Source of the DNA: Oscillospiraceae bacterium
GTDB lineage: Bacteria; Bacillota; Clostridia; Oscillospirales; Ruminococcaceae
Assembly (NCBI GenBank): GCA_051882595.1
Contig: JBJESD010000005.1
Location: 2,369-66,368, forward strand
Reading direction: 5' to 3'
DNA length: 64,000 bases
Both the position numbers and the translations under genes were made by a program. Below the pieces are notes generated by a model, which saw only the letters and a list, made by a program, of their open reading frames with translations, had not been told where the DNA came from and ran no database searches. Below, one piece after another: positions 6,443-59,200 of this stretch. Every line of letters starts with the position of its first letter. The first letter of the stretch is position 1.

Positions 6443-6490
6443 TAAGTTCATTATATCATCACATCATCAGCGCTGAAATTATTCAGCGCT

Positions 6491-6618
6491 CAGACTGGCG
6501 ATAAACCGCCATCTGCGGTGTCAGCGCCGCTGCGACAGCCACAAAGGCTAGTCGCAGCGGCGCTTCCTAGCATCTGACGATTTCTCAACAGTCTGATATT
6601 TGACTTTTTCGACAAGCT
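6491..6618 (+). mobile_element. 128-bp TIR element, copy A (MITE-like), flanked by a duplicated terminator hairpin
   Basis: CAGACTGGCGATAAACC...CTTTTTCGACAAGCT. The flanking hairpins are CAGCGCTGAAATTATTCAGCGCT (6468-6490) and CAGTGCTGAAATGATTCAGCGCTG (6619-6642). Confidence 0.8.
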
Positions 6619-6715
6619 CAGTGCTGAAATGATTCAGCGCTGGGCTTGTCGTTTTCTCGACATACGCCAAAAAGCACATATTGCAAAAGAAAAAATTTAT
6701 TTCCTGTATTTGCGC

Positions 6716-9783: not shown

Positions 9784-11700
9784 TTATGCATTGTGCTGTT
9801 CAAGATACTCTATATACGACCGCTCCGGAATTGGTTTGGAGTAGTAGTATCCCTGCAGATAATCCACGCCAAGTTCAATCAGCAGGTCCGCCATCTCACG
9901 GTTCTCAACGCCCTCCACCACGATGCCCTTGTCAAGGCTTTTCAGCATCATTACAGTGTGCTTAAGCACGTTCATCGCCTCTTCATTTTCCATTGCCGGC
10001 CACAGAATGCTCTTGTCTATCTTAACAATGGAGAGCGGCAGGCGGATAAGGTAGTTTGCCGTGGAAAAGCCTGTACCGTAGTCATCCATGGAAAAGGACG
10101 AGCCTGCCCGTACAAGTGCGTCCATGGTATTGATAAGCACCTTGTCATTGATGCTGTGCGCAGTTTCGGTTATCTCAAAATTGATGCGTCCCGGCGCGAT
10201 TTTGAACTCTTTCATTATTGCCAGCAGCGTAGCGGACAGGTTTTCCTGCATACATTGGATGGTGGAGAGATTGACCTCGATGTACTCCACTCCAAGGCGG
10301 AAGATGTCGCTGTGGTGCATAAATTCGCATACCTTGCGGAAGATTATTTCTCCGATCTGAACAATAAGTCCGTTGCGTTCGGCAAGCGGAATAAATTCGT
10401 CGGGCGGAATAAAGCCAAGCTCGGGATCAATAAGCCTTACCAGCGCCTCTGCAGAGGTGAACTTGCCCTTTTCGGTGGAATAAAGCGGCTGGAAATATAC
10501 CCTGAATTCATCGTTCTGAATAGCGCGCTTCATGATGTGAACTATCTGATTTTCGCGGTTCTTCTTTCCAAGCGCTTCCGCGGTAGCCTTGATAACCTCG
10601 TTGCTGTCATCCTGACTTCTTTGCTTGAGGCAGAACTCAAGCGCATCCGTAACATCCTCGGGCTTTTCGGCGAAGTCCGGATAGTCGATACTGCACATAC
10701 GCGGAGAGAGCTGAACCTCTGTGCCGTTGATGATGCACGGCTTTGCAAAGTGTGCTTTGATGCGTATCACGGTGCTTTCAAGGTCGCCGGTGAATTCGCT
10801 TATCATAATGGCGTAGCGACAGCCATACAGGTGATAGACATCGCGCGAACCGAACTCCTTCATAAGATATCGGGAGATAGAGTCGATAAGCTCGTTTGCG
10901 TTCTTGACGCCCAGAATGCAGTTGATATACTGGAAGTCATCCGGAACAAACGAAACAACCGTAAACGGTGTTCCCTTTAGCATATGCTTTTCGATAGTCT
11001 TATTAAAAGCATACTGATTAAAGCAGCCTGTCGTCTTGTCGATATAATCGTCCGGATTCTGAAGCGACACATAAACCACAATAAGGTAAAGCGCGCAGGC
11101 AAAGCTCTGAAGCAGCACATTGCTGAAAACAGCCTGCAAAATTATCGCGGCGATAAGCGAAAGATTGAAGATAATAACCGAAACGGTCTGGTACTTGGTA
11201 AGATTGCGGCGGAACTTCACGCATAGCAGGAAGCAGTGGAACAGCATTAATATTGCCAAAATGTAAAGCACCGACATCAGAGGACCGTGACAATAGTTGT
11301 TGTTTTCGTCGAAATAAATCACCCACTTTGTAATCGGTGTGCTAAAAATCAACAGCGCATCCGCCAGTATTACCGCAACCGCAATCAAGCGGTCTAACAA
11401 AGTGGTACGGTTTTCCTTTGTAATGGCAAGTACATACACATAGTACAACACAGCACATCCATTGAACGCTGCAAGATACACCATGTTTGCGGCATAATTA
11501 AGCCAAACGGGAACAGTATCCGAATGACCAATGGTATAAACCGTGGCAAGATCCATTACTGTGGCGAAAAAGTTAGCGCCAAGCATACCTGCATACAGCT
11601 TGTTTGCGTAAGAGGGAAAGTTGCGCCGTATGGCAAGCAGCAAACCAAAAATAAGAATGATAAAGCACGCGGCTATATCATATTCATAAATATACTCCAT
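9784..11700 (-). CDS. Membrane sensor with degenerate GGDEF and intact EAL domain (c-di-GMP phosphodiesterase)
   Basis: The N-terminus is multi-TM. The GGDEF position reads YGCRYA. The EAL signatures are AEALVRL, EVNLS, EITE, DDYGTG, KIDKS, EGVE and QGYY. Confidence 0.85.
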   Translation of the reverse strand: MEYIYEYDIAACFIILIFGLLLAIRRNFPSYANKLYAGMLGANFFATVMDLATVYTIGHSDTVPVWLNYAANMVYLAAFNGCAVLYYVYVLAITKENRTTLLDRLIAVAVILADALLIFSTPITKWVIYFDENNNYCHGPLMSVLYILAILMLFHCFLLCVKFRRNLTKYQTVSVIIFNLSLIAAIILQAVFSNVLLQSFACALYLIVVYVSLQNPDDYIDKTTGCFNQYAFNKTIEKHMLKGTPFTVVSFVPDDFQYINCILGVKNANELIDSISRYLMKEFGSRDVYHLYGCRYAIMISEFTGDLESTVIRIKAHFAKPCIINGTEVQLSPRMCSIDYPDFAEKPEDVTDALEFCLKQRSQDDSNEVIKATAEALGKKNRENQIVHIMKRAIQNDEFRVYFQPLYSTEKGKFTSAEALVRLIDPELGFIPPDEFIPLAERNGLIVQIGEIIFRKVCEFMHHSDIFRLGVEYIEVNLSTIQCMQENLSATLLAIMKEFKIAPGRINFEITETAHSINDKVLINTMDALVRAGSSFSMDDYGTGFSTANYLIRLPLSIVKIDKSILWPAMENEEAMNVLKHTVMMLKSLDKGIVVEGVENREMADLLIELGVDYLQGYYYSKPIPERSYIEYLEQHNA

Positions 11701-11821
11701 CTTTTACCTTCGCAATCTTCATTATGTTTAAGCGCCAAAGCAAAAAGAAGCATAAACGTCACATAAAGCTACGTCTTCTGTCACGCTTTAGCGCACAGCT
11801 GCACTGATATTGTTACTTTTC

Positions 11822-11850
11822 ATTATAAAGCAATTGTTGCGGTTTGTCAA
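11822..11850 (-). promoter_or_regulatory. Consensus sigma-A promoter of the EAL gene 9784..11700
   Basis: On the minus strand: TTGACA, a 17-nt spacer, then TATAAT. Confidence 0.6.
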
Positions 11851-11943
11851 TCAAAATAGAATGATTTTTTTAAGCTGCGATGTTTTTTCGCGCACGAATT
11901 GACGCTATCATGTGCCGAATGTCAGCGCTTGCTGCATACACGG

Positions 11944-13236
11944 TCAATCGGAGTACTCGGTTATTTCACAGAGAGCCGAGCCGAAATCAATTTTTGTTCC
12001 CAGAAAAATCGGCGCTGCCGAGCCCTGCGGAACTTCCTTTTCTTGTCCGTTGGGAAGCACGCACCTCCATACATCCGAAGTGTGGTTCTTAAGCCCCCAC
12101 AGCGAGGGATTTACCTTGTTGCGTACAACCTCGGCGGTTACTGAAATATCATCGCCGAACAGCTTGGTTCCGTCGGACAGGAGAATGCGGTTCTTTCCTC
12201 CGGCAAGAACAAGAGGCGGTGCAAAGTGAGCTCCGCACGGACAGATGAATTTTCCGTCCTCATCCTTGGCGTATGAGGGCGCAAAGCCCTGAGCGCCGCA
12301 GGTGCAGCAGCAGATATCCGAGCGAAGCCTTACAAGCAGGTCAAGCCACTGCTTTTCAATAAGACGCTTTTCCGGCTGATGAAGCCCTGTGGTGAACGAA
12401 AGTGTGAACGCCTCGCGTATGTACTCGGGCATGATTTTCCAGAACTTGATGATGTTATTGTGCACGCCCCTCACAGGTCGGTTGGAGTCGTCCTCCGGGT
12501 CATAGACGAACATCGGCTCAAAGCCGTAATGGCGGCGCTCGGCGTCCTCTGTCAGGCATACGCTCTTAAGCACCTTGCCGCCCTCAAGCGGATCGCCGCG
12601 CAGCAGCAGCCGGAACAGCAGCACTGCCAGCGAATATCGGTCGGTAAGCTTATCCGGCGCCTTTTCGCCGCGAACTATCTCGGGCGCCATATAGCCGGGC
12701 TTTCCGGCAATTCCCAAGTGCTCGCCATATGGAGCGATGTTATCGCAGTCGCAGATCCTTATATCCCCGTCGGCAGGGCGTATGAAAAAGCCGCCGTCGT
12801 TAAGGTCCTGATAGCTTTTTCCGCTGTTGTGCAGCTCGCGGAACGCAGAAGCAATGCGAATTGCAGCATTGACGATAGCGTACAAGTCCGAGAACCTCAC
12901 ACGGGCATTTAGTATATCGGAAAACGGCGCATATTCGGGCGGGATAAGCTCCATAAGAAAGCCGAATACACCGTCACTGTTCTCGGTAAGTATAAGCGGC
13001 ATCATGAATGCCTCGGATACGCTTGCACCTGACGCAAGCGCACTGAGATTTTCTCTGAAAAGCTCGGGCTGCTTAAGCTTGTTGGTAAAGTACATTTTCA
13101 GCGCGTAGTCCTGTCCGCGGTACGACGCGCGATATACCGCTCCCTGTCCGCCCTGACCCAGAGTCCGGGTTATCTCGGCTTCTCCGCCGAGCTCAAGCGG
13201 TATCCTGTCGCCGACCTTGAATGTTTTTGCACCCAT
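11944..13236 (-). CDS. Atypical Ser/Thr-type protein kinase with a C-terminal Zn-ribbon and beta-rich (possibly FHA-like) domain
   Basis: AAGAGG lies 8 nt before the ATG at 13236. The kinase-like motifs are GQGGQGAVY (Gly loop), YALKMY (Lys), YQDLNDG (catalytic loop variant), CDCD (in place of DFG) and GYMAPE. The Zn-ribbon is CCCTCG...CPCG. Confidence 0.75.
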   Translation of the reverse strand: MGAKTFKVGDRIPLELGGEAEITRTLGQGGQGAVYRASYRGQDYALKMYFTNKLKQPELFRENLSALASGASVSEAFMMPLILTENSDGVFGFLMELIPPEYAPFSDILNARVRFSDLYAIVNAAIRIASAFRELHNSGKSYQDLNDGGFFIRPADGDIRICDCDNIAPYGEHLGIAGKPGYMAPEIVRGEKAPDKLTDRYSLAVLLFRLLLRGDPLEGGKVLKSVCLTEDAERRHYGFEPMFVYDPEDDSNRPVRGVHNNIIKFWKIMPEYIREAFTLSFTTGLHQPEKRLIEKQWLDLLVRLRSDICCCTCGAQGFAPSYAKDEDGKFICPCGAHFAPPLVLAGGKNRILLSDGTKLFGDDISVTAEVVRNKVNPSLWGLKNHTSDVWRCVLPNGQEKEVPQGSAAPIFLGTKIDFGSALCEITEYSD

Positions 13237-13430
13237 GATATTCACCTCTTAATTGATTTGATAAGATGATTATAACATTTTTCTAGCTTTTTTTCAAGTG
13301 GGAGTATTTTTGCACCGTCATTATCCTTTTGGAAAATTATTGATAATGATAGTTGATTTTGCCGAGCTACTATGTTATAATAAATATGTATATTATTTCA
13401 CTAATGTCAAAAATGATCCGGAGGAATAGC

Positions 13431-15401
13431 ATGGATTTGTGTTTCAAGTTTCAGATTCTCGCAATCGGCGTGCTGTTAGTTATAATGACAGATTCTCTGT
13501 TCAGCAAAAGGCTGCCGCTGATTTCTACAAGGGCATTCCACCTGTTCTGGGGCGCCTCTATGGTAAATCTGCTGGGAGATATTGCGTCCTACTACACCCT
13601 GACGCATATGGACAGCGTGCCGGAGTGGGCCAACCGACTGGCTCACCAGATATACATAGGCTCGCTTGACGCAATTGTATTTATACTGTTCATATATGTC
13701 TGCCTGCTGTCAGGCGTTCAGCGGCGCATTCCCAAAATACTGATGCTCGGCTTTTCGCTGCCGTTTCTCGTGGCGCTTGCCTTTGCCTTGTTTGCACCCA
13801 TATACTATGTAGCGAACGAGCACGGCGCATATTCGTACGGCCCGATGGTCACTGTATTCTACCTTTCCATTGCTGTATACATAATATCTATCTTTATTAT
13901 TCTTTTCAGAAAAAACAGTGTTTTCAACAGCGACAGCTCAGTTTCGGATGTTATCGCAGACCTTAAGCGCGCAAGGATATCCATTGCCGTAGGTCTTTGC
14001 ATCTGGATCGTGGTTGCACTCGTTCAGTTCATCACAAAATACTGGCTTATCTCCGGAATGGGCGTAGCTCTTATGGTTATGTATGTTTACATAAGATTTG
14101 AAAATCCGCGCGAATACGCCGATTCCGAAACAGGCACGTTCAACCGCCGTGCATTCCATATAATGGTTCCCGAAATGTACGCCAGAAAAAAACCGTTTTA
14201 TCTCGTCAGCTTCTCCCTTGACAATATCATGAGCATCCAGAAAACCATGGGCTATGACATGACGAAAAAAATACTGCGTCAGGCTGCCGATCAGATAATG
14301 TTCGCCGTTCCGGGAATACAGCTTTATCATTCGCGCTCGCATACCCTTACGGCGTTTATAGAGAACAAGGAGGACCTCGACAAGCTTGCCTCGCGAAGCG
14401 AACTGTGGAATTTCAAATGCACCGCCTCGCTGTCCGACGGAACATTCACACCCAGCTATCACCTTACGATACTGGAATGTCCGAAATATGCCGCCAATAC
14501 CGACGAGCTGTACGATACTCTGGATTACTGCCTTTCACAGCCGTCGCTGCGCGGTGAGGGCAAAATTTACTACATCAACGATGAGATAATCAACAGCAAG
14601 AATTACCGCCTTGCTGTTCTCGATATACTGACAAAGGCAGTAAAGGAAAAGGCTTTCACCGTAGTCTACCAGCCGATATATTCCGCGCACAAAAAGCGCT
14701 TTGCCTCGGCGGAGGCTCTGGTGCGCCTTAAGGATACCGAAACAATCGGCTTTATCTCACCCGAGTACTTCATCCCTCTTGCAGAGGAGCAGGGGCTTAT
14801 CGGCGATATCGGAAACATCGTGTTTGAAAAGGTATGCGAATTTGCCGCACGCGAAAAGCTGTGGCAGCTTGGCATCGAGTATATCGAAGTAAACCTTTCG
14901 GGCGTTCAGAGCGTTGACCTCAGCATAGTCGCGACGCTCACCGGTATAATGAAGCGCTACGGCGTGCACCCGGGATTTTTCAATCTCGAAATAACCGAAA
15001 CCGCCTCAATAGACGGCGGTGATATGCTGGTATACAACATGGAGCAGTTCCGCAGGCTCGGCTGCCACTTCTCCATGGACGATTTCGGCACGGGCTACTC
15101 CAATCTGGCGCAGATGGCAAGAGTACACTTCGAGCTTATCAAGCTGGACAAGAGCCTTATCTGGCCATGCTTCGGGGATAGCGACACCGAAGAACCGCGG
15201 ATCATACTTGACAGCTGCATTGACATGATACTGCGGCTGGGCGCAAATATCGTTGCAGAGGGCGTTGAAACCGCCGAACAGGCAGATTTGCTTATCGGCA
15301 AGGGAGTTGAGTACCTTCAGGGATATTACTTCTGCCGTCCCTCAAACGAAACGGATTTCCTCGCGGCAGTGAAGAAGATGCTTGCACAGTCTAACGCCTG
15401 A
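13431..15401 (+). CDS. Membrane sensor with degenerate GGDEF and intact EAL domain, paralogue of 9784..11700
   Basis: GGAGG precedes the ATG at 13431. It has the same architecture and EAL motifs (AEALVRL, EVNLS, EITE, DDFGTG, KLDKS, EGVE, QGYY). Confidence 0.85.
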   Translation: MDLCFKFQILAIGVLLVIMTDSLFSKRLPLISTRAFHLFWGASMVNLLGDIASYYTLTHMDSVPEWANRLAHQIYIGSLDAIVFILFIYVCLLSGVQRRIPKILMLGFSLPFLVALAFALFAPIYYVANEHGAYSYGPMVTVFYLSIAVYIISIFIILFRKNSVFNSDSSVSDVIADLKRARISIAVGLCIWIVVALVQFITKYWLISGMGVALMVMYVYIRFENPREYADSETGTFNRRAFHIMVPEMYARKKPFYLVSFSLDNIMSIQKTMGYDMTKKILRQAADQIMFAVPGIQLYHSRSHTLTAFIENKEDLDKLASRSELWNFKCTASLSDGTFTPSYHLTILECPKYAANTDELYDTLDYCLSQPSLRGEGKIYYINDEIINSKNYRLAVLDILTKAVKEKAFTVVYQPIYSAHKKRFASAEALVRLKDTETIGFISPEYFIPLAEEQGLIGDIGNIVFEKVCEFAAREKLWQLGIEYIEVNLSGVQSVDLSIVATLTGIMKRYGVHPGFFNLEITETASIDGGDMLVYNMEQFRRLGCHFSMDDFGTGYSNLAQMARVHFELIKLDKSLIWPCFGDSDTEEPRIILDSCIDMILRLGANIVAEGVETAEQADLLIGKGVEYLQGYYFCRPSNETDFLAAVKKMLAQSNA

Positions 15402-15480
15402 AAATCGCGGCAAGCATAGCCGCCATTAATATGTACGCCTAATATATAATGATGCCCCACAGTTCACTGTGGGGCATCAC

Positions 15481-15860
15481 AGGCTGTCGATAAACCGCCA
15501 TCTGCGGCGTCAACCACATAACGGCAGGCACAGATAGGATGTCTGTGCAGTTACCCCAAAAGCCCGACACGACGTCGGGCAACAAAGGGCAACATGGCAC
15601 AAAGCCTAGCCGTTGAGCGCGTTTAGAGTAACACGAAGTGTTATTCGTGCATCTGACGGCTTCTCGCCAGCCTGATAATTTACTTTTTCGACAGGTTCTC
15701 CGCAAAAGCGGAGGTCGGAATGGCTAACGCCATCCCGAGTCGTCCCTCCTGCGCGCAGGTACTTGTCGGGACAGCGGTATTTTTTGCGAGGGAAACCCTC
15801 GCAAAAAATAGATTACAAATGCTCGCTGCGCGAGCATAAACTAAGTTTTTCGACAAGCTG
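15481..15860 (+). mobile_element. Composite, decayed copy B of the TIR element with nested insertions and two right ends
   Basis: The left end CAGGCTGTCGATAAACC is intact. There is a 69-bp insertion in the apical loop, a degenerate right end at about 15685-15697, and a second right end TTTTTCGACAAGCT at 15847-15860. Flanking hairpins lie at 15452-15479 and 15862-15895. Confidence 0.7.
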
Positions 15861-15924
15861 AATGGTGCCCCACAGTGAACTGTGGGGCACCATTGGTATT
15901 ATGGTTTTATCATGAAATTTTCAA

Positions 15925-34181: not shown

Positions 34182-35156
34182 ATGGACGCAGACAGTCGAA
34201 GTACAAACACAACAGAAAATGCAGACAGACCCAAACGCCGCAAGCTGCGCAGATTTATGCTGGGCTGGCTTATTGCGCTTAACAACGGCGTAACCAAGTT
34301 CTTAAAATGGGCACTGGGCAATGATTACCGCGATTTCACCGAGGACGAGGTGCTTGATATGGTGGACGCCTTGTCGAAAACTCCCGGAGATGACGGCGAC
34401 GACAGCGTTATCGAGGAAACCTCGGCTCAGATGATAAACAATATCTTCGAGTTCAACGACCTCACCGCCGCAGATGTAATGACCCACCGCACCTCTATTA
34501 TCGGCGTGGAAAAGGGCGTTTCGCTGGACGATATCATCTATATTGCGCTTGACAGGGGCTTTTCCAGACTGCCCGTCTATGACGGAAGCATCGACAGGAT
34601 AATCGGCATCATCATCGTAAAGGATCTGCTGTGTCTTGTCGGAGAAAAGGATCTCAGCTCGTTTGATATCAACGATTTTCTGCGAGATGTTATATTTATT
34701 CCCGAGGCGTGCCCGTGTTCGGATACGTTCCAGTCGCTGACCTCGCTCAAGTCCGGCATGGCGGTGGTGGTGGATGAGTACGGCGGAACCGCAGGCATCG
34801 TCACCCTAGAGGATATCATCGAGGCGGTAATGGGCAATATTCAGGACGAGTACGACGACGAAAAAAGCGAGATAGTGAAGATAGGCGACGACCAGTATGA
34901 TGTCACCGGCGAGGCGGACCCGGAGGATGTTCTGGCGCTGTTTGACGCACATCTCCCCGAGGAGCACGAGTACCGCACGATTGCAGGCTTTATCACGGAT
35001 AAGCTCGGTTATATCCCCGAGGGCGACGAGATAGTACCGCCCTATGTCGATTACGAGGGAGTTCACCTCGTTGCACTGCAAATCGAGGACAGGTGCATAG
35101 TCAAGGTGAGAGCGTCAAGGACAGAGCCCTGCGCGGAAAACGAGAATATGGAATAA
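34182..35156 (+). CDS. CBS-pair + CorC/HlyC C-terminal domain protein (CorC-like, no full DUF21 membrane domain)
   Basis: AAGGAG RBS. It has tandem CBS motifs and a CorC_HlyC-type C-terminus (IAGFITDKLGYIPEGDE). Confidence 0.85.
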   Translation: MDADSRSTNTTENADRPKRRKLRRFMLGWLIALNNGVTKFLKWALGNDYRDFTEDEVLDMVDALSKTPGDDGDDSVIEETSAQMINNIFEFNDLTAADVMTHRTSIIGVEKGVSLDDIIYIALDRGFSRLPVYDGSIDRIIGIIIVKDLLCLVGEKDLSSFDINDFLRDVIFIPEACPCSDTFQSLTSLKSGMAVVVDEYGGTAGIVTLEDIIEAVMGNIQDEYDDEKSEIVKIGDDQYDVTGEADPEDVLALFDAHLPEEHEYRTIAGFITDKLGYIPEGDEIVPPYVDYEGVHLVALQIEDRCIVKVRASRTEPCAENENME

Positions 35157-35187
35157 TTAATAAAGCCGTTCCCATACAGGAACGGCT

Positions 35188-35315
35188 CAGACTGTCGATA
35201 AACCGCCATCTGCGGCGTCAACCACATAACGGCAGGCACAAAGCCTAGCCGTTATGCGGTTTCCTAGCATATGACGGCTTCTCGCCAGCCTGATAATTTA
35301 CTTTTTCGACAAGCT
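35188..35315 (+). mobile_element. 128-bp TIR element, copy C, flanked by a 25-bp duplicated terminator hairpin
   Basis: CAGACTGTCGATAAACC...CTTTTTCGACAAGCT. The flanks are AAGCCGTTCCCATACAGGAACGGCT (35163-35187) and AAGCCGTTCCCACACAGGAACGGCT (35316-35340), followed by TTTGTTT. Confidence 0.85.
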
Positions 35316-35439
35316 AAGCCGTTCCCACACAGGAACGGCTTTTGTTTCGCTATCGAAGATTGACTTTTATTGTCCGCGCTGATATAATATTTATGTGGGC
35401 TTGTAATACATTGCCCGTCATTATTGCGGAGGTACAGAT

Positions 35440-36533: not shown

Positions 36534-38360
36534 CTATTCAGCCATGCAGTCCAGTATCAGCGATATCTCTTCCATATAGTCCGGTATGACCTCGCCGTTT
36601 TCTATAAGGCAGTCGCCGATGTGCTCCAGCGCGGCAGAATTAAGCTCCTCGTAAGCCGTTTCGGGGAGAACTCCGCGCTCGCGGCAAAGGCTTTCCGCAC
36701 TGCCGTGCATAAGCGCATTAAGCAGCTCCAGCTGCGGCACATCAAGCGACCGGGCAAGTTGCCGCCAGCCCTCGGGCAGCCCGGAAAAATCATAGCCCGA
36801 TCCGACCTGTGCACAGGCGTTTTCGGTCTGCTCGTCAAACACCTCGTCAACTATCCTTGCGGTTATCTGCTCTATCTCCTCGGTGGGGATGGAGTCCTCG
36901 TATTCCTCGATTATAAGCTTTCTTGCGGTCTGCTCCGCTTCTTCGCGTATCGCCGCAAGGCTTTCTACATTGATCTCAATTTTCGGCGGAGTCTGCGGCG
37001 CAGCCTGCCTTATATCATCTGCGGCAAAATGGTTGCCGCTTTTCTTTTTGCTCTCCTTTTTCGGCGGCATTATGCCGTGGCGGTCGCACCATTCGTTTAC
37101 AGCGTCCGGGATAATGCAGGAAAACGCCTCTTCGCTTGCCGCCTTGTGCAGCTTGCTTCGGTTGGTGAAGTCATCCAGCACAGGCGAAAGATTTGCCGAA
37201 ATGCTGTATCGGAAGCCCATCCGCTTTCTCAGCACCGCCTCTGTGGATTTCAGGATATACCCGATAAGACTGCGGTACGGCGCACACTCAAATCTTTCAA
37301 GGCACGGCTCTCCGCGCTTGGTGCAGTACTGCCCGTATGAGTTGATACGGCAGGCATGAAATCCGTCCATTCTGTCAAGGTCAACAAACGCTCCGCAGAA
37401 CGGCGTCCAGAAATGGTCCTTTCTCGGCTTGCCGCAGATAAGCTCAAACAGCGATATTCCGCGCTCCTTGAAATACTCGTTCATCGAGCGAAGCACATCG
37501 CTAAGCACAGCCTCGAATACAGGCGCGGTTTCCTCGGAGAAGAATATGCTGCCCTTGAGATTATAGGACGAGCAGCCCATAAGATACTCCAGCTTGTTTT
37601 CGTAGTTGCCTGCTTCAAGCTCGCAGATGTCCTTGCCGCAGCTTTCATCCTGCACGGGGAACGCTGCCGCGATATCCGTAAACTCGCCCTCTATCTCGTT
37701 GAACGCGTAAAAATCGCCGAGCCACTGCGGCATGGTTTCGTCAAGCGACGGGCAGAAGCTGCGGCAGTTTTCCCACACGGCGATAAGACGGTCAAACGCG
37801 TCCTGCGACGACAGTACCCCTATTTTGTTCAGCAGCTCGTAGCAATACAGCGTGATGTACGCCTTGTCGGTACGGGCAAACACTCCGCGCCGCACGTCCG
37901 TCCTCCATGTAAAATAGGTGCGCAGCTGCTCGAACGAGAGAGCGCCGTAAACAGGTCTTTCAATGCCGCAGTAAACGCTTCGGTTGAAATCGTCAGCAAC
38001 ATCGCACATATATTCGCCCTGCTTAACGATGCTTACCTCTGCGCACTGCCGGATTGTGAAGCCGCGATAAAGCGTCTGACCCAGCTTTCGCATCTCGCGT
38101 ATCCTATCGGCAATTGGGGCAGTTTCGTCCGGCAGCTCGGGAGCATAAGCAAGCTCCGTTGCTTCGGGCGCAGCGCTGCTGTGACGGGGCGCGTCATAGC
38201 GTATATTGTCACGGGGCGGTATTTTTTCGCCGCGGCTCTCGGCGTCTGCGTTTTCCGTGATATTTTCTATCTTTACGCGGATAATTCTCTGAATTTCTTC
38301 TTGTATTTCTTTTTTCGTCTTCGCTTTGCTGCTTATCAGCAGCTTGAAAAAATCTGACAT
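36534..38360 (-). CDS. TerB-N / TerB-C domain protein
   Basis: GGAGG RBS. The TerB-N-like signature is YGALSFEQLRTYFTWRTDVRRG. After an acidic linker, the TerB-C-like tail reads INVESLAAIREEAEQT...LDVPQLELLNAL...GVLPETAYEELNSAALEHIGDCLIE. Confidence 0.7.
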   Translation of the reverse strand: MSDFFKLLISSKAKTKKEIQEEIQRIIRVKIENITENADAESRGEKIPPRDNIRYDAPRHSSAAPEATELAYAPELPDETAPIADRIREMRKLGQTLYRGFTIRQCAEVSIVKQGEYMCDVADDFNRSVYCGIERPVYGALSFEQLRTYFTWRTDVRRGVFARTDKAYITLYCYELLNKIGVLSSQDAFDRLIAVWENCRSFCPSLDETMPQWLGDFYAFNEIEGEFTDIAAAFPVQDESCGKDICELEAGNYENKLEYLMGCSSYNLKGSIFFSEETAPVFEAVLSDVLRSMNEYFKERGISLFELICGKPRKDHFWTPFCGAFVDLDRMDGFHACRINSYGQYCTKRGEPCLERFECAPYRSLIGYILKSTEAVLRKRMGFRYSISANLSPVLDDFTNRSKLHKAASEEAFSCIIPDAVNEWCDRHGIMPPKKESKKKSGNHFAADDIRQAAPQTPPKIEINVESLAAIREEAEQTARKLIIEEYEDSIPTEEIEQITARIVDEVFDEQTENACAQVGSGYDFSGLPEGWRQLARSLDVPQLELLNALMHGSAESLCRERGVLPETAYEELNSAALEHIGDCLIENGEVIPDYMEEISLILDCMAE

Positions 38361-38389
38361 CTGTTCACCTCCGCAGGTGACGAAACGGA

Positions 38390-39256
38390 TTAGTTAAAGG
38401 TTATCAGCTCTTCCCAGTTTTCGGGCATTCCCAGATGCTCGCGCCTTATAACATCGGCATTTTTGTGAATAAGCCTTGCAAGCGGTGTAACCACCTGAAG
38501 ATTCCAGTTGTTGTGGTCGTGATAAACCTGCTTCATAACGATTATGTAGCCGAAAACGTTGGGAAGCAGCTCGATATCCATTGTGCGCGGAGCTTTCGGC
38601 TCTACGGGGAATGTATTGCCATACAGCCTGTTGTAGTGGGCGCAGTAGTTGCGCAGCTCGTTAAGGCAGAATATCCAGTTATCCAGCTCGGAGCTTGAGC
38701 AGCCGTAGAATTGTTCCGCAAGCTCCTTTTTGTCGGCGTTCTGCATATCCTTGAAGAAGAATGCAAGCGTGCCGAAGCTGAACAGCTCCATTATTACCCA
38801 AAGCGGAAAGTCGCCGCGGTACTTGTTGTTGTAGTGACGCACAAACTCGCGATCCTCGTTCACCTCGACAAGATGCCGTATCTTGGACATAAACGCGTTG
38901 TGGTTATGCCTGAAATCAAAGCTTGAGCTGTTGAGATATCCCAGTGCGCCGTATTTCAGCGAGTGGTAGTTAGATATCGCGGCGCGCAGTGCTATCTCTA
39001 TCTCCTCAAGCGCTGCGATAAGGATGCTTCGCAGCTTTCTGTCGAACTCGTATACCCTGAGGATGTTTTCAAAGGTGGTGCCCTCTTCGTACCTATCCTT
39101 GCTGACGCAGAACGGCTTGAAGTAGTTGGAAAGGCGGAAATAGTTGATGTATTTCAGCGTTTCCTTTGCACGTTCCTCGTCCTCGATGATACAGCCGCGC
39201 TCGCGCAGCTTGTCGATCTGCTGTTGAAGTGTTGCAGGCAGCTTTTTCTTTGCCAT
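38390..39256 (-). CDS. Abi_2 (AbiD/AbiF-like) HEPN-superfamily abortive-infection protein
   Basis: GGAGG precedes the ATG at 39256. The N-terminus YINYFRLSNYFKPF and the LRNYCAHYNRL (R-x4-H) motif are characteristic of Abi_2. Confidence 0.8.
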   Translation of the reverse strand: MAKKKLPATLQQQIDKLRERGCIIEDEERAKETLKYINYFRLSNYFKPFCVSKDRYEEGTTFENILRVYEFDRKLRSILIAALEEIEIALRAAISNYHSLKYGALGYLNSSSFDFRHNHNAFMSKIRHLVEVNEDREFVRHYNNKYRGDFPLWVIMELFSFGTLAFFFKDMQNADKKELAEQFYGCSSSELDNWIFCLNELRNYCAHYNRLYGNTFPVEPKAPRTMDIELLPNVFGYIIVMKQVYHDHNNWNLQVVTPLARLIHKNADVIRREHLGMPENWEELITFN

Positions 39257-39293
39257 GTTGTCCTCCGATCCGGGCGGCACCGCATTGTGCTCA

Positions 39294-40295
39294 TCAATCC
39301 ATCCAGAATACTTCTCGCTCATGTCTGCTTTCTCTTGTCATCAGTGAAGAAATGCTGTGCTTCGGATTTGCGCCATTGTAGCATACATTTACTATCTCTT
39401 CAATTATCGGTGTGTCAATGCTGCGCTCTACAGCAAGGCGGTATGCTATCTTGCTGCTGGTGTAGCCCTCAACCGTGCCCACCTGTGCGACCGCCTCCGC
39501 CGCAGGTGTTCCGCTGCCGATAAGAAAACCTGCGCGGTAGTTCCTGCTGTGCTGCGATGTGCAGGTAACGATAAGGTCGCCTATTCCTGCCATTCCCGTA
39601 AAGGTCTTCCAGTTTGCGCCCAGCGCAACGCCAAGGCGCGTTATCTCGGTCATGCCTCTTGTCATCAGCGCTGCTACGGTATTATCGCCAAGATTCATGC
39701 CTCTGGCGATGCCGCATCCCAGTGCGATAGGATTTTTAAGCACGCCGCCCAGCTCGCAGCCTGCAACGTCATCATTAAGATATATTCTGTATCTCTCGTT
39801 TGAAAGCGTTTGCTGTATATATTTCGCTGTTTCCGTATCATATGCGGCGCACACCTCGGTCGTGGGCACAAGCCTTGCTATTTCCTCTGCATGGCACGGA
39901 CCGGTGATAACTCCTATCTGATTGTCGGGAAGCTCCTCGGCAAGTATCTGCGACAGGCGGTTGCCCGTGTCTGCCTCAAGGCCCTTGCTTACATTGATAA
40001 CAACGGTGCTTTTGTCGATGTGAGCCTTTGCAAGCCTTACAGTATCGCGGTAAAACGGCGAGGGAATAGCCACCACCACCATATCCGCGCCGCTTACGCA
40101 GCTTATGTCCGTGGTAACTCCGAGCGCGTCGGGAAGCTTTACCCCGGGAAGCAGCCTTTTATGCTCGCGCTGAGTGCGCAGCTGCTCTGCCTCCTCCTCG
40201 AACTTTGTCCATGTTATTACCTCGTGTCCGTAGGTGCTGTACAGCACGCCGAGAGCTGTGCCGTATCCGCAGCCGAGTATTGCTATCTTTGCCAT
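39294..40295 (-). CDS. gpsA: NAD(P)H-dependent glycerol-3-phosphate dehydrogenase
   Basis: MAKIAILGCGYGTA Rossmann start and typical GpsA motifs (GVLKNPIALGCG, GDLIVTCTS). Confidence 0.95.
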   Translation of the reverse strand: MAKIAILGCGYGTALGVLYSTYGHEVITWTKFEEEAEQLRTQREHKRLLPGVKLPDALGVTTDISCVSGADMVVVAIPSPFYRDTVRLAKAHIDKSTVVINVSKGLEADTGNRLSQILAEELPDNQIGVITGPCHAEEIARLVPTTEVCAAYDTETAKYIQQTLSNERYRIYLNDDVAGCELGGVLKNPIALGCGIARGMNLGDNTVAALMTRGMTEITRLGVALGANWKTFTGMAGIGDLIVTCTSQHSRNYRAGFLIGSGTPAAEAVAQVGTVEGYTSSKIAYRLAVERSIDTPIIEEIVNVCYNGANPKHSISSLMTRESRHEREVFWMD

Positions 40296-46281: not shown

Positions 46282-46616
46282 TAACTTGTAACAGAAGTTA
46301 TACTTTTTTACAAAATTTATTACCCCTGTCCGCAATAGTGGATGGGGGCTTTCTGTTGCCGCACATTTACCCCTTGACAAATCGTGCGAATAGGAGTAAA
46401 CTTTATCATAAGATGACTTATAGGAACCTCTAAAAACCTCCTTCACGGCTGATTTGCTATGACAGCCGCCATCTACTTCGTTGCAAAACCTTGAAATACA
46501 TCCAGTATTACTGCGGTTTGTGCGCCTCGTATCCGGCAACTGTCATGTACTCAAATCCGCTCGTGTCCCGGTTTTTAGAGAACCCCGACTATATTATACG
46601 AAAGTGAGGTCATATC

Positions 46617-55199: not shown

Positions 55200-57008
55200 A
55201 TGAAAATCAAAGAAAAACCAAAGTATTCCGCCCTGTCTAACGTTATGTATATGCTGAAAACCCTTTGGCACGGCAGCAAGGGATATGTCATCTACACTTT
55301 CGTCAAGGAATTCAACGAAAACGTGTTCTGGACGATATTTTCAGTGTATCTGACAGAGTGGATTTATGTCGCAATTGAAAACAAAACGCCATTTACCGCG
55401 CTTGCCTCCTTCGTTGGGGCAATGTGCATCGGGCATATCTGCATACATATCACTGCGGCTATTCATCAGCTGTGCGAAAAGCAGTTTCTGCCGAAAATGT
55501 ACCGGGATTTCTACAAGCGCGTTATACGCAAATCCATTTCAATGGATTACACCGAGTTTGAGCGCCCCGATTTCTACGACAAATACACCCGTGCGCTGAA
55601 TGAGTGCCAATGGCGAGGCAGTACAATTCTGTACTTCTCCGCATATCTCGTTGCAGGTATAGCTTCGGTAATTGCGGCGACGATTATTGTCGCTGACGTT
55701 GACCCGTGGCTGCTTATATTCATCCTGCCCATGGTTGCGGTTTCGATGCTTTTCGGCAAGAAGGAGGGCGACCTCTACTACTCCCTCGATATGTCCAACA
55801 CCCGTGACGGACGTATCGGCAGCTACGCAAAGCGCGTGTTCTATGAAAAGAAATACGCAGGAGAATTGCGCCTTTTCGGTATCGGCAAGCTGTTATTATC
55901 ACGTCACGAAAAGGCATATGAGGAAATGGAGGAGCGCACCCGTAAAATACGCAGAAAGCTGTGCGTCATCGAGCCTGCAAAGTGGATAATCTACAACCTT
56001 TTGTCAACAATTCTCCCCTATCTCTACATAGCATTCGTGCTTAACAAGGGCGAGGTTCAGACTGCCGCTTATGTGGCAATGATACCTGCTCTTTCCACCC
56101 TTTCGTGGCGCACCTCCGACGCTGTTGAGCTTATCGTTTCTCTTGCAAAAGAGAGCGCATTTGTAAGCAATCTCCGCGAGTTCCTCTCCTATGAGCCTAA
56201 AGTCAACGCTGACGAGCTTATCAAGGCGAAAAAGCTTTCCGACATCGAAATCAAGGACATGAGCTTCACCTACGAAGGAGCGGATAGCGCCACGCTCCAT
56301 GATGTAAACATCAGTATCCGCGAGGGCGAGAAGATTGCCATTGTGGGTCACAACGGCGCAGGCAAAACCACCCTTGTAAAGCTGATAATGGGGCTCTACA
56401 ACCCTACCGAGGGCAATATAAAAATCAGCGGCGAGGATATCACAAGGTACGAGCCGAAATCGCTTCACAGCCGTTTCGGTACGGTGTTTCAGGACTTGCA
56501 GGTGTTCGCCCTGCCGCTTTCCCACAACGTATTGATGCGCAAGCCGAAGAACGACGAGGAGCGAGCGCTTGTCGAGGAGTCACTGCGCAAAGCGCAGTTC
56601 GGCGACAAGCTGGACAGCCTTGAAAACGGCATTGACACAATGGTTACCAAGGAGTTTGACGAGAACGGCATGGGGCTTTCGGGCGGCGAGGCGCAAAAGA
56701 TCGCCATCGCACGAGTTTTCGCCCGAAAGCCGGATATCGTGATACTTGACGAGCCAAGCTCCGCCCTTGACCCTATTGCAGAGTACAATATGTATAAGAA
56801 TATGCTTACCGCAACGGACGGCGAAACTGTAATATTCATCTCGCACCGACTTTCCGCGACCCGTGACGCCGACCGCATATATATGTTCGAGCAGGGCACG
56901 GTCGTTGAACAGGGAACTCACGCCGAATTAATGGCGCTGAACGGAAAATATGCGGAAATGTGGAAATTACAGGCGCAGAACTATCTTGCAGAGGAGGTGA
57001 CGGCATGA
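55200..57008 (+). CDS. ABC exporter, fused permease/ATPase subunit 1
   Basis: 6 TM segments plus an NBD. Walker A GHNGAGKTT, LSGGEAQK, ILDEPSSALD. Confidence 0.92.
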   Translation: MKIKEKPKYSALSNVMYMLKTLWHGSKGYVIYTFVKEFNENVFWTIFSVYLTEWIYVAIENKTPFTALASFVGAMCIGHICIHITAAIHQLCEKQFLPKMYRDFYKRVIRKSISMDYTEFERPDFYDKYTRALNECQWRGSTILYFSAYLVAGIASVIAATIIVADVDPWLLIFILPMVAVSMLFGKKEGDLYYSLDMSNTRDGRIGSYAKRVFYEKKYAGELRLFGIGKLLLSRHEKAYEEMEERTRKIRRKLCVIEPAKWIIYNLLSTILPYLYIAFVLNKGEVQTAAYVAMIPALSTLSWRTSDAVELIVSLAKESAFVSNLREFLSYEPKVNADELIKAKKLSDIEIKDMSFTYEGADSATLHDVNISIREGEKIAIVGHNGAGKTTLVKLIMGLYNPTEGNIKISGEDITRYEPKSLHSRFGTVFQDLQVFALPLSHNVLMRKPKNDEERALVEESLRKAQFGDKLDSLENGIDTMVTKEFDENGMGLSGGEAQKIAIARVFARKPDIVILDEPSSALDPIAEYNMYKNMLTATDGETVIFISHRLSATRDADRIYMFEQGTVVEQGTHAELMALNGKYAEMWKLQAQNYLAEEVTA

Positions 57009-58828
57009 GCGAGAAGAAAAAAGACAAAATCAAGATGAAAAGGCTTGTTTCAAACGTTTGGTACGTAGTGAAATACGCTCTGCGTCACGATAAAAAGCTG
57101 CCCCTTTCCTATATCGTAAGCCAATGCGTTTTCAGAGGCGCCCATGCATTTATGGACACCTTTCTCCTTATGGAGATCATCAACATTTTCACCACAACGG
57201 CAGATATTTTAAGCGTTGTTAAAGTGCTTGCTGTAATGTTTGCTCTTCAGGTTGTCAGCATGATAGTTTTCAGATACCTCGAAAACTATTTCTGGACGAA
57301 GATGATAGGCTTTACAGGTAAGGTCCAGCGTGAGCTTATGGCTAAGGCTCAGCTCATGGACTTGAAATATTACGATATCCCCGAATACTTCGACGACTTC
57401 GTTATTGCCGCCTCACAGTCCGAGGAAATGTGCAAAAAGGCTATAATGAGCGCCGCAAGCATTATTTCCACCGTGGTTGCAATGATTATTTCGGGAACAA
57501 TGATTATTACAATCAATCCCACTGTGGCAATTTTCCCTGTAATCGGCTTTGTTGTCAACATCATAACCCGTTTCATCATCACAAAGCTTGAGTACGAATA
57601 CAACCTTGAAAAGCAGCGTATCGGCAGAAAGGCAGACTACTCAAAGAGAGTGTTCTACCAGCCCGAATACGCAAAGGAGATAAAGCTCACGGGCATTGAA
57701 GAGGCGCTTATGGAGCAGTATGACGAGGCAATAGCCGAGGAGCGTAAAATGGCACTCGGCTACTCGCTGAAAATCCTTGCGCCTACCCTTATAAACTGGA
57801 TAACCGTGTTTACGCTGTGCCAGTTCTATGCCGTGCCTGTGTATCTTGCATATCTTGCCATTGAGAAAAAGACCATTCAGCTTGGCGAGGTCGCATCGCT
57901 GAAAAATGCAACAAACTTAATCAAGAGCCAGCTTGACCAGATGAACTATGCGCTGGTTGATTTCCAGACCGTGGGGCAGTATGCCGAAAAGTTCCGCCGC
58001 TTTATGGATTACGAAATCAATATTGAGGGCTGCGAGGGTGAAGCTCCTGTTCCCGAAAACGACTGCACGCTTGAACTGCGCAATGTCAGCTTCAGATACA
58101 AGGACAGCGAAAAATATGTCCTTAAAAACGTCAGCATGACCATACGAAAGGGCGAGAAGCTTGCGCTTGTTGGCGAAAACGGCGCAGGAAAAACAACTCT
58201 TATAAAGCTCATTATGCGGCTTTACGATGTGACAGAGGGCGAGATCCTCTTCGGCGGAGTGGATATCCGAAAGCTTAACACAAGGGCGTACCGCAAAAAA
58301 ATAGGTGCGGTTTTTCAGGATTTCCAGATTTATGGCGCTACTCTTGCAGAAAACGTAAATATGAGCTTTGTCGATGACCCCGACCGCGAAAAGATAACCA
58401 AAGCGCTGGAGAGAGCCGACTTTGGCGGCAAGCTGAGCCGTCTTGACAGCGGAATCGACACCGAGCTTACCAAGGAGTTTTCCGATAGCGGAACAATGCT
58501 TTCGGGCGGCGAAGGACAGAAAGCGGCTATCGCAAGGATATTCGTCAGCAACTCACCCGTTGCAATTCTCGATGAGCCAAGCTCTGCCCTCGACCCTATC
58601 GCAGAGTACAGGCTGAACAAGAGTATGCTGGAAAACGCAGAAAATCAGGCGGTCATACTCATCTCCCACCGCCTTTCCACCACCAAGGATGCCGACCGCA
58701 TTATTCTCCTCGAAAACGGCAGTATCGCAGAGAGCGGAACACATGCGGAGCTTCTCCAAAACGGAGGAACTTACGCCAGAATGTGGAACGTTCAGGCAGA
58801 GAAGTACTGCACCTCGATTTATGCGTGA
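57005..58828 (+). CDS. ABC exporter, fused permease/ATPase subunit 2
   Basis: ATGA overlap with subunit 1. Walker A GENGAGKTT, LSGGEGQK, ILDEPSSALD. Confidence 0.92.
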   Translation: MSEKKKDKIKMKRLVSNVWYVVKYALRHDKKLPLSYIVSQCVFRGAHAFMDTFLLMEIINIFTTTADILSVVKVLAVMFALQVVSMIVFRYLENYFWTKMIGFTGKVQRELMAKAQLMDLKYYDIPEYFDDFVIAASQSEEMCKKAIMSAASIISTVVAMIISGTMIITINPTVAIFPVIGFVVNIITRFIITKLEYEYNLEKQRIGRKADYSKRVFYQPEYAKEIKLTGIEEALMEQYDEAIAEERKMALGYSLKILAPTLINWITVFTLCQFYAVPVYLAYLAIEKKTIQLGEVASLKNATNLIKSQLDQMNYALVDFQTVGQYAEKFRRFMDYEINIEGCEGEAPVPENDCTLELRNVSFRYKDSEKYVLKNVSMTIRKGEKLALVGENGAGKTTLIKLIMRLYDVTEGEILFGGVDIRKLNTRAYRKKIGAVFQDFQIYGATLAENVNMSFVDDPDREKITKALERADFGGKLSRLDSGIDTELTKEFSDSGTMLSGGEGQKAAIARIFVSNSPVAILDEPSSALDPIAEYRLNKSMLENAENQAVILISHRLSTTKDADRIILLENGSIAESGTHAELLQNGGTYARMWNVQAEKYCTSIYA

Positions 58829-58886
58829 TCAGCGTAAGGTCGTTATTGACAGCAAAGAAAAATCCCCCGACCAAGTTCGGTGGACC

Positions 58887-59013
58887 AGCTTGTCGAAAAA
58901 GTCAATAACAGGCTGGCGAGAAATCGTCAGATGCTAGGAAGCGCCACTACGACTAGCCTTTGTGGCTGTCGTAGCGGCGCTGACGCCGCAGATGGCGGTT
59001 TATCGACAGCCTG
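58887..59013 (-). mobile_element. TIR element copy D1 (inverted orientation)
   Basis: AGCTTGTCGAAAAAG...GGTTTATCGACAGCCTG, lying between hairpins 58862-58884 and 59014-59039. Confidence 0.85.
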
Positions 59014-59040
59014 AAATCCCCCGACCAAATTCGGGGGATC

Positions 59041-59168
59041 AGTTTGTCGAAAAAGTCAAATAACAGGCTGGCGAGAAATCGTCAGATGCTAGGAAGCGCC
59101 ACTACGACTAGCCTTTGTGGCTGTCGTAGCGGCGCTGACGCCGCAGATGGCGGTTTATCGACAGCCTG
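59041..59168 (-). mobile_element. TIR element copy D2 (inverted orientation), tandem to D1
   Basis: Nearly identical to D1 (AGTTTG versus AGCTTG, plus one extra A), lying between hairpins 59014-59039 and 59169-59196. Confidence 0.85.
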
Positions 59169-59200
59169 AAATCCCCCGAACCGAGTTCGGGGGATTATGT

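Follow-up and report, generated by a model that had tools for sequence, protein, structure and literature searches.

The 128-bp element located downstream of a CBS/CorC_HlyC gene in a 64-kb stretch of DNA from a gut Oscillospiraceae bacterium (this whole stretch is referred to below as the window) is very probably a MITE derived from an insertion sequence (IS) of the IS1182 family, presumably mobilised in trans. Its insertion duplicated a complete stem-loop of the target, and full-length ISs with the same termini make the same kind of duplication. The original prediction could not assign this behaviour to a known element family; the termini are those of IS1182-family ISs. Mobile elements that duplicate terminator hairpins are a sparsely documented but already known kind, of which the 128-bp element is a new member. 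The features of the four loci in the window and the duplications flanking the full-length relatives are shown in Table 1.

Table 1. Element copies, their parts and flanking hairpins in the window, and hairpin duplications at complete ISs on other contigs.
Feature	Position in window	Strand	Sequence or remark
Locus A hairpin copy 1	6468..6490		CAGCGCTGAAATTATTCAGCGCT
Locus A MITE copy	6491..6618	- (+ in copy list)	subfamily with variable helix GCGCCGCTGCGAC
Locus A hairpin copy 2	6619..6641		CAGTGCTGAAATGATTCAGCGCT
Locus B hairpin copy 1	15450..15479		TGATGCCCCACAGTTCACTGTGGGGCATCA
Locus B composite copy	15480..15859	- (+ in copy list)	long-form rod and two IRL-type ends
Locus B hairpin copy 2	15861..15894		AATGGTGCCCCACAGTGAACTGTGGGGCACCATT
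35-kb locus, H1 (gene-proximal target hairpin copy)	35163..35187		AAGCCGTTCCCATACAGGAACGGCT
35-kb locus, 128-bp MITE	35188..35315	-	starts CAGACTGTCGATAAACC, ends CTTTTTCGACAAGCT on + strand
35-kb locus, rod-like hairpin core, 105 nt	35188..35292	-	outer ~20 nt (35188-35207 on +) = IS right end (IRR)
35-kb locus, IRL-type terminus	35298..35315	-	AGCTTGTCGAAAAAGTAA on - strand; matches left end of IS1182-family ISs
35-kb locus, H2 (distal hairpin copy)	35316..35340		AAGCCGTTCCCACACAGGAACGGCT, loop CACACA; terminator-like on +
Locus D hairpin copy a	58860..58885		AAATCCCCCGACCAAGTTCGGTGGAC
Locus D MITE copy A	58886..59013	+	end-motif match
Locus D hairpin copy b	59014..59039		between MITE copies A and B
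Locus D MITE copy B	59040..59168	+	96% identical to copy A
Locus D hairpin copy c	59169..59196		AAATCCCCCGAACCGAGTTCGGGGGATT
L104, perfect hairpin duplication, 40 bp			AAATCTGCCATTATCCTAAAAATTAGGAAATGGCAGATTT
L105, perfect hairpin duplication, 25 bp, read directly			GCCGCCAGTCATGCATACTGGCGGC
L106, perfect hairpin duplication, 25-26 bp			GGGCGGTAGGTGTTATTCTACCGCC
L107, perfect hairpin duplication, 22 bp			GGAGCGTCTCGAAAGACGCTCC

The sequence at 35163-35340 was re-read and consists, as originally described, of three blocks: a hairpin, the 128-bp element and a second hairpin. The stop codon of the CBS/CorC_HlyC gene (324 aa) lies at 35156, upstream of H1. H1 has a stem of 9-10 bp and the loop CATACA, and is not followed by a T-tract on the + strand. 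H2 is followed by TTTTGTTT at 35341-35348, and 20 nt beyond these the next gene has a strong promoter-like site. The two hairpins are 25 bp long each and identical in 24 of 25 positions, the single difference being a loop base. According to the ORF lists the 128-bp element contains no gene. Its - strand runs collinear with the IS, with IRL first, then a 7-nt linker and the rod ending in IRR. The imperfect terminal inverted repeats that had been described were found again, with about 11 of 14 positions matching between CAGACTGTCGATAAAC and the reverse complement AGCTTGTCGAAAAAGT.

Genes for an identical CorC protein are present on three other public contigs (L012, L013 and L014). The alleles of L013 and L014 have the arrangement of the window, hairpin-element-hairpin, whereas the conspecific contig L012 (ENA ERZ13405075) reads TAGAGCCGTTCCCATACAGGAACGGCTTTCGTATCGC / GGAATAATTTATAGAGCCGTTCCCATACAGGAACGGCTTTCGTATCGC, which is one hairpin without the element. 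The inserted 153 bp are thus the element plus a single copy of the hairpin, which makes the 25-bp repeat a target duplication extending from foot to foot of the stem-loop. The empty allele of L012 bears out the view that the flanking repeat is target-derived and a complete stem-loop; an empty allele already provided with two tandem hairpins was not seen, the L012 allele having a single one. Two Logan contigs end within the element, as contigs do at repeats, and short-read contigs break there. At Locus A the strain of L012 (contig L023) also lacks the element and has a single hairpin, followed by T6; the spacer is otherwise strongly diverged, and the 35-kb locus provides the only clean empty site. 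A sister species, the PEPCK of which is 91% identical, has only one terminator hairpin after its CorC ortholog, differing from that of the window, and the element is absent from the 21.8 kb compared. Empty alleles of loci B and D were not obtained, the exact proteins being unrecorded or the contigs ending in the element, and synteny at these loci is lost in the nearest relatives (L025 and L026).

The window contains five copies of the element at four loci, each copy lying between locus-specific hairpins. These hairpins are unrelated in sequence from locus to locus at all four loci, in agreement with the original prediction. The 17-mer of the left end has six matches in the window (0.06 expected), and 7 of the only 16 perfect hairpins with a stem of at least 9 bp in the 64 kb abut an element end, so that chance is excluded as the origin of the pattern. 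That only the distal hairpin retains a U-tract holds true for the 35-kb and 59-kb loci and fails at the 6.5-kb locus, the sequence past H2 being GGGCTTGTCG there. Directly past the distal hairpin of this locus, at 6643-6662, the sequence GGCTTGTCGTTTTCTCGACA resembles two facing element ends and may be what an earlier insertion or excision left behind.

The copy at 15.5 kb has two right ends, and the different right flank originally described for it had been read after the first of these. Next to the outer end (15844-15859) stands GGTGCCCCACAGTGAACTGTGGGGCACC, a match to the left hairpin GATGCCCCACAGTTCACTGTGGGGCATC. The rod of this composite copy is of a long form with an apical insertion of about 90 nt, and its two IRL-type ends, 15682-15697 and 15844-15859, enclose 146 unrelated bp. 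This segment (15698-15843) is unique in the window and carries a perfect, bidirectional terminator-like hairpin with a 15-bp stem at 15778-15810; it may be captured spacer DNA, or may stem from a second event into the element end (compare the doubled end IS1272L). Between the hairpin copies at 15450-15479 and 15861-15894 the loop is flipped (TTCA versus TGAA) and one stem pair is changed from A-T to G-C with compensation; these differences look as if template switching had corrected a quasi-palindrome once the duplication had formed. At Locus D, two copies form a tandem pair in the order hairpin-element-hairpin-element-hairpin, with the sense strand on +.

No further copies were detected in the window with the covariance model R1, besides a weak match at 46451-46557 (26.6 bits, E about 2e-4), which overlaps an ORF start, has no recognisable end motif and is probably due to chance. 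A transposase was not found among the 30 ORFs scanned in the 64 kb, and the gene content is ordinary chromosomal. Possible defence or stress genes of the window encode a TerB_N/TerB_C protein adjoining an Abi_2 protein (36534-39322), a TerY_C domain protein after a Sel1-repeat protein (2535-2921) and a Ser/Thr kinase (11944-13245). The repeat families D3 and D6 (72-82% identity) correspond to two adjoining paralogous ABC exporter genes at 55200-58828.

Autonomous ISs with the same termini, for which a search had been proposed, exist on a plasmid of another species and on viral contigs, as described below; in the 64 kb scanned of this genome no IS1182 copy was found. Viral contigs were scanned with the 17-nt right end, which gave 54 matches, most of them coincidental and inside phage genes; real relatives are present in L054, L062, L057, L066, L071, L080 and L089. 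The contigs L054 and L062 stop 60-105 nt inside an element; past the flanking hairpin, its end runs from CAGCTTGTCGAAAAAGTCC through a terminator-like hairpin and an extended -10 box to a start codon. A BLAST search with the L062 end led to a site directly in front of an annotated IS1182 family transposase gene on pTVN, a plasmid of Thermocaproicibacter melissae (Oscillospiraceae). The pTVN IS is 1527 bp long, with the left end CAGCCTGTCGAAAAAGTCC and a right end terminating in GGATGGGTTCTTCGACAATCTG. Its transposase contains the domains DUF772, DDE_Tnp_1 and DDE_Tnp_1_6 and scores 400 bits with the NCBIfam model transpos_IS1182 (NF033551, cut-off 270). On the left side, the element terminus CAGCTTGTCGAAAAAGTC matches the left ends of the pTVN IS, L054 and L062 in 17-18 of 19 positions; on the right side, about 13-14 of 17 positions agree between the IS end GGTTCTTCGACAATCTG and the MITE end GGTTTATCGACAGTCTG. 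A partner IS of the element would carry the ends CAGCTTGTCGAAAAAG / CGACARYCTG.

Six relatives of the pTVN transposase, 57-94% identical, were found on viral contigs. Four of them belong to complete ISs (L104-L107) of 1501-1525 bp with the termini of the pTVN IS. All four complete relatives are flanked by a perfectly duplicated hairpin (Table 1), and duplication of a whole hairpin is therefore normal in this IS1182 subgroup. The pTVN copy itself lies between two different hairpins and shows no duplication. Its flanks (L102 3965-4000 and the record end of L103) are GGCTGATAACATTATGTTATCAGCC on the left and AGAGAAGAATTCTTTGGAATTCTTCTCT followed by T8 on the right, a pattern suggesting that copies have recombined or that the stretch between two hairpins was replaced. 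The pTVN IS adjoins a type III-A csm operon.

Non-autonomous relatives with the same ends are also present among the viral contigs. L057 contains an unrelated 287-bp element with a duplicated terminator hairpin on both flanks, and L066, L071, L080 and L089 contain a MITE family of 172 bp. In L066, L071 and L089 the 172-bp MITE occurs in three flank combinations, the hairpin GCAAGGGAAAGGGGGAACCCTTTCCCTTGC being on the left in L089 and on the right in L066; these swaps indicate recombination between copies in phage-like contigs. The 17-mer matches in L064 and L088 were rejected, being located inside an ORF, and the neighbouring IS21-like istA/istB genes are unrelated. In L064 this gene pair occupies 11348-13614, with istB apparently frameshifted and the 17-mer match in the neighbouring ORF.

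The length of the duplication follows that of the hairpin, from 23 to about 30 bp in the window and from 22 to 40 bp in the full-length relatives. Nine unrelated hairpins, four in the window and five in L057 and L104-L107, were targeted regardless of their sequence. That the duplication length follows the hairpin implies that structure and not sequence positions both strand transfers at the stem feet. The proposal of hairpin- or cruciform-directed integration thus stands as far as the insertion at the stem feet and the length of the duplication are concerned; from these we infer that the cruciform or hairpin is itself recognised.

A pathway consistent with these data would be as follows. The sense strand of the element retains the IS left end CAGCTTGTCGAAAAAGT, followed by the 7-nt linker and the 105-nt rod, with the IS right end GGTTTATCGACAGYCTG closing the 3' arm of the rod. 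These ends would be bound by a DDE transposase of the IS1182 family acting in trans, and their 3' OH groups would be joined to both strands of the palindrome where the stems of the extruded target hairpin or cruciform have their 5' feet. The stagger would then equal the whole stem-loop, and gap repair would leave one complete hairpin on each side. [quoted passage not shown] 13). Since rho-independent terminators are the commonest stable intergenic palindromes, copies would accumulate just after genes. The gene-proximal hairpin would lose its T-tract on the gene strand, while the distal hairpin would keep it. Each insertion would regenerate two targets, making tandem arrays of the type hairpin-element-hairpin-element-hairpin possible; repeated insertion into doubled targets can explain the array at 59 kb, for which unequal crossing-over is an alternative.

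The core of the element is a rod of constant length (105 nt) that forms one long imperfect hairpin, with a conserved base, a hypervariable 9-bp helix showing full covariation and a conserved apical hairpin. By exact-word scans the rod core was found in six other Oscillospiraceae/Clostridia genomes, with different flanking genes in each; these rod-only copies have neither an IRL end nor a flanking duplication. The exact 19-mer scan of genome contigs gave the six real rod copies and five chance matches, the JGI metagenomes gave seven chance matches only, and IMG/VR gave none. A BLAST search of the 128-bp element against plasmids and phages gave no match, and model R1 found no copies in L023-L026 or in 75 viral loci. 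No mention of the core sequence was found in the literature. Fifteen base pairs of the rod are compensated, and 0 of 500 shuffles reached any of the observed measures. The rod folds better on the strand opposite to the orientation first described (-73.9 versus -56.3 kcal/mol, RNAalifold consensus), and the same asymmetry is obtained for the 35-kb copy with DNA parameters (-35.5 versus -24.5 kcal/mol). Paired cells amount to 99.0% on the better strand and about 92% on the other, the latter counted from the pair table, and of two conserved G.U pairs one is present in 7/7 and the other in 6/7 sequences. The read-through from CorC suggested originally, with its extension of the 3' UTR, would transcribe the less well folding strand. 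The long form of the rod, with its conserved apical insertion, is shared by the 15.5-kb copy of the window and L006. On L005 (4384-4548), from a Ruminococcus MAG, a clpB-like ORF stops at a TAA inside the rod (CGATAAACC), and a 49-nt mini-copy without the apical hairpin (27 bits with R1) adjoins the full rod. On L010 (5540-5664) a 164-aa ORF on the better-folding strand has its start codon 19 nt past the end of the rod, which would therefore belong to the 5' UTR of this ORF.

Such conservation could also be expected if the rod were primarily a structured RNA gene or 3'-UTR element, serving mRNA stabilisation, RNase processing or as an sRNA, with mobility being secondary. The constant length, the unpaired positions conserved to about 90% in the six other genomes, the compensated pairs, the preference for one strand and the conservation of the optional apical domain are in line with this reading, which is nonetheless improbable. 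At the gathering score Rfam 15 has 0 matches in the window, relaxed E-values giving sub-threshold noise only, and no promoter-like site was found on the better-folding strand. The orientation of the rod to neighbouring genes is mixed; by our own reading of the flanking ORFs, there are 4 copies among 11 at which the genes on both sides run opposite to the better-folding strand. Together with the different flanking genes in every genome, these points argue against the RNA reading, as does the outer arm of the rod, which is homologous to the IS end, full ISs having a smaller hairpin at the same place. Owing to this homology and the smaller hairpin, a requirement at the DNA level can explain the pairing of the rod. 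Judged by sequence, the rod of the MITE resembles an enlarged form of the small hairpin that overlaps the right end of each full IS.

The covariation and strand asymmetry of the rod are not predicted by ordinary binding of double-stranded terminal inverted repeats, and suggest either that a folded donor end is required or that the rod has a secondary RNA role. It is thus conceivable, if rather unlikely, that the rod is a selected single-stranded or cruciform structure which the transposase sees at the donor end, mirroring the target hairpin, or else an RNA element co-opted in 3' UTRs. If true, a DDE transposase would read DNA shape at donor and target alike, and the compensated changes that the rod has accumulated in different genera would amount to a natural mutational scan of the donor-structure requirement.

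For the IS1182 family, direct repeats of 0-60 bp are given in ISfinder. The best studied elements for comparison are IS1272 and TnSha1 of staphylococci, members of this family, which target hairpins and terminators without sequence specificity and insert at the stem foot, often just downstream of genes (PMC5678879, PMC4923244). They share with the ISs whose termini match the element the transposase family, and with the element the choice of variable inverted repeats, hairpins or terminators as targets. They also have extra terminal-repeat copies (IS1272L and the IRL' of TnSha1), comparable to the three end-like motifs and the doubled end at 15682/15844 found here. IS1272 and TnSha1, however, delete or replace the target hairpin and leave no duplication (PMC5678879, PMC4923244), whereas the hairpin is duplicated by the window element and the four full-length relatives; the window element, moreover, is non-autonomous and only 128 bp long. 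Other palindrome-targeting IS1182 members appear in these two papers by way of a citation of Siguier et al. 2015.

Mobilisation by an IS30-family transposase related to that of IS1630 from Mycoplasma fermentans would likewise account for variable, long duplications of inverted repeats taken from the target. IS1630 is reportedly autonomous and 1.4 kb long, and the inverted repeats that it duplicates are said in its original study to derive from terminators of neighbouring genes. In the passages on IS1630 in two published papers, the duplicated inverted repeats are given as 19-26 bp (PMC2853133) or 16, 23, 25 and 26 bp (PMC3317919) in length. This likeness is drawn from the duplications and not from the termini, and IS1630 has a transposase of a different family. 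An IS30-type gene or end was not found, and both termini of the element match IS1182-family ISs that are themselves duplicators of whole hairpins, which makes an IS1630-like origin very improbable.

Movement as single-stranded DNA by an HUH Y1 transposase, as in REPIN/RAYT or IS200/IS605 elements, would agree with the REPIN-like size of the rod hairpin and with its strand-asymmetric folding as DNA. The ends match a DDE IS family, though, and no Y1 transposase was seen. To our knowledge, REPIN/RAYT and IS200/IS605 systems make no target duplication, and such an origin is exceedingly improbable. The absence of any transposition, with twin hairpins older than the element, local tandem duplication or chance in its place, has a negligible probability: the tandem hairpin-element units at 59 kb could have arisen by unequal crossing-over, but the empty allele with a single hairpin refutes this view for the 35-kb locus, and four unrelated hairpins at four loci, with the same pattern in unrelated contigs, speak against it elsewhere.

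A group IIC intron was rejected as a candidate, the best group-II match having 13 bits at a cut-off of 49 bits, the element only 128 bp and a duplication being present. Integron attC sites, Xer/dif modules, a Cas1-type integrase and REPIN/RAYT were excluded by sequence features or by the duplication. Integration of CRISPR spacers or casposons by Cas1 resembles the present case in that staggered attack duplicates a palindromic repeat and gives repeat-insert-repeat arrays; it differs in that here there is no Cas1, the insert has DDE-type IS termini and the hairpins vary by locus. With ERIC, Correia/NEMIS and RPE the element shares the form of an imperfect palindrome of about 100-150 bp, the intergenic and dispersed location, the occurrence across species and the existence of long and short forms. 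Those repeats are unrelated to it in sequence and are known to make short duplications (TA for Correia) or none, and for the present element the parent IS family is identified. A terminator-duplicating MITE is not mentioned in two reviews of prokaryotic MITEs.

The assignment of the 128-bp element to an IS1182-type parent provides an IS family for a repeat that is abundant in a gut Oscillospiraceae genome and had no label before. Together with its relatives the element offers clean natural examples of structure-directed transposition, comprising an empty site and duplications of 22-40 bp at nine different hairpins. Such elements separate terminators from their U-tracts, yield twin hairpins and tandem arrays, break short-read assemblies, and could pass for structured RNAs or CRISPR-like arrays. 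With its covarying rod, the MITE is a convenient minimal substrate for hairpin recognition by IS1182-family transposases.
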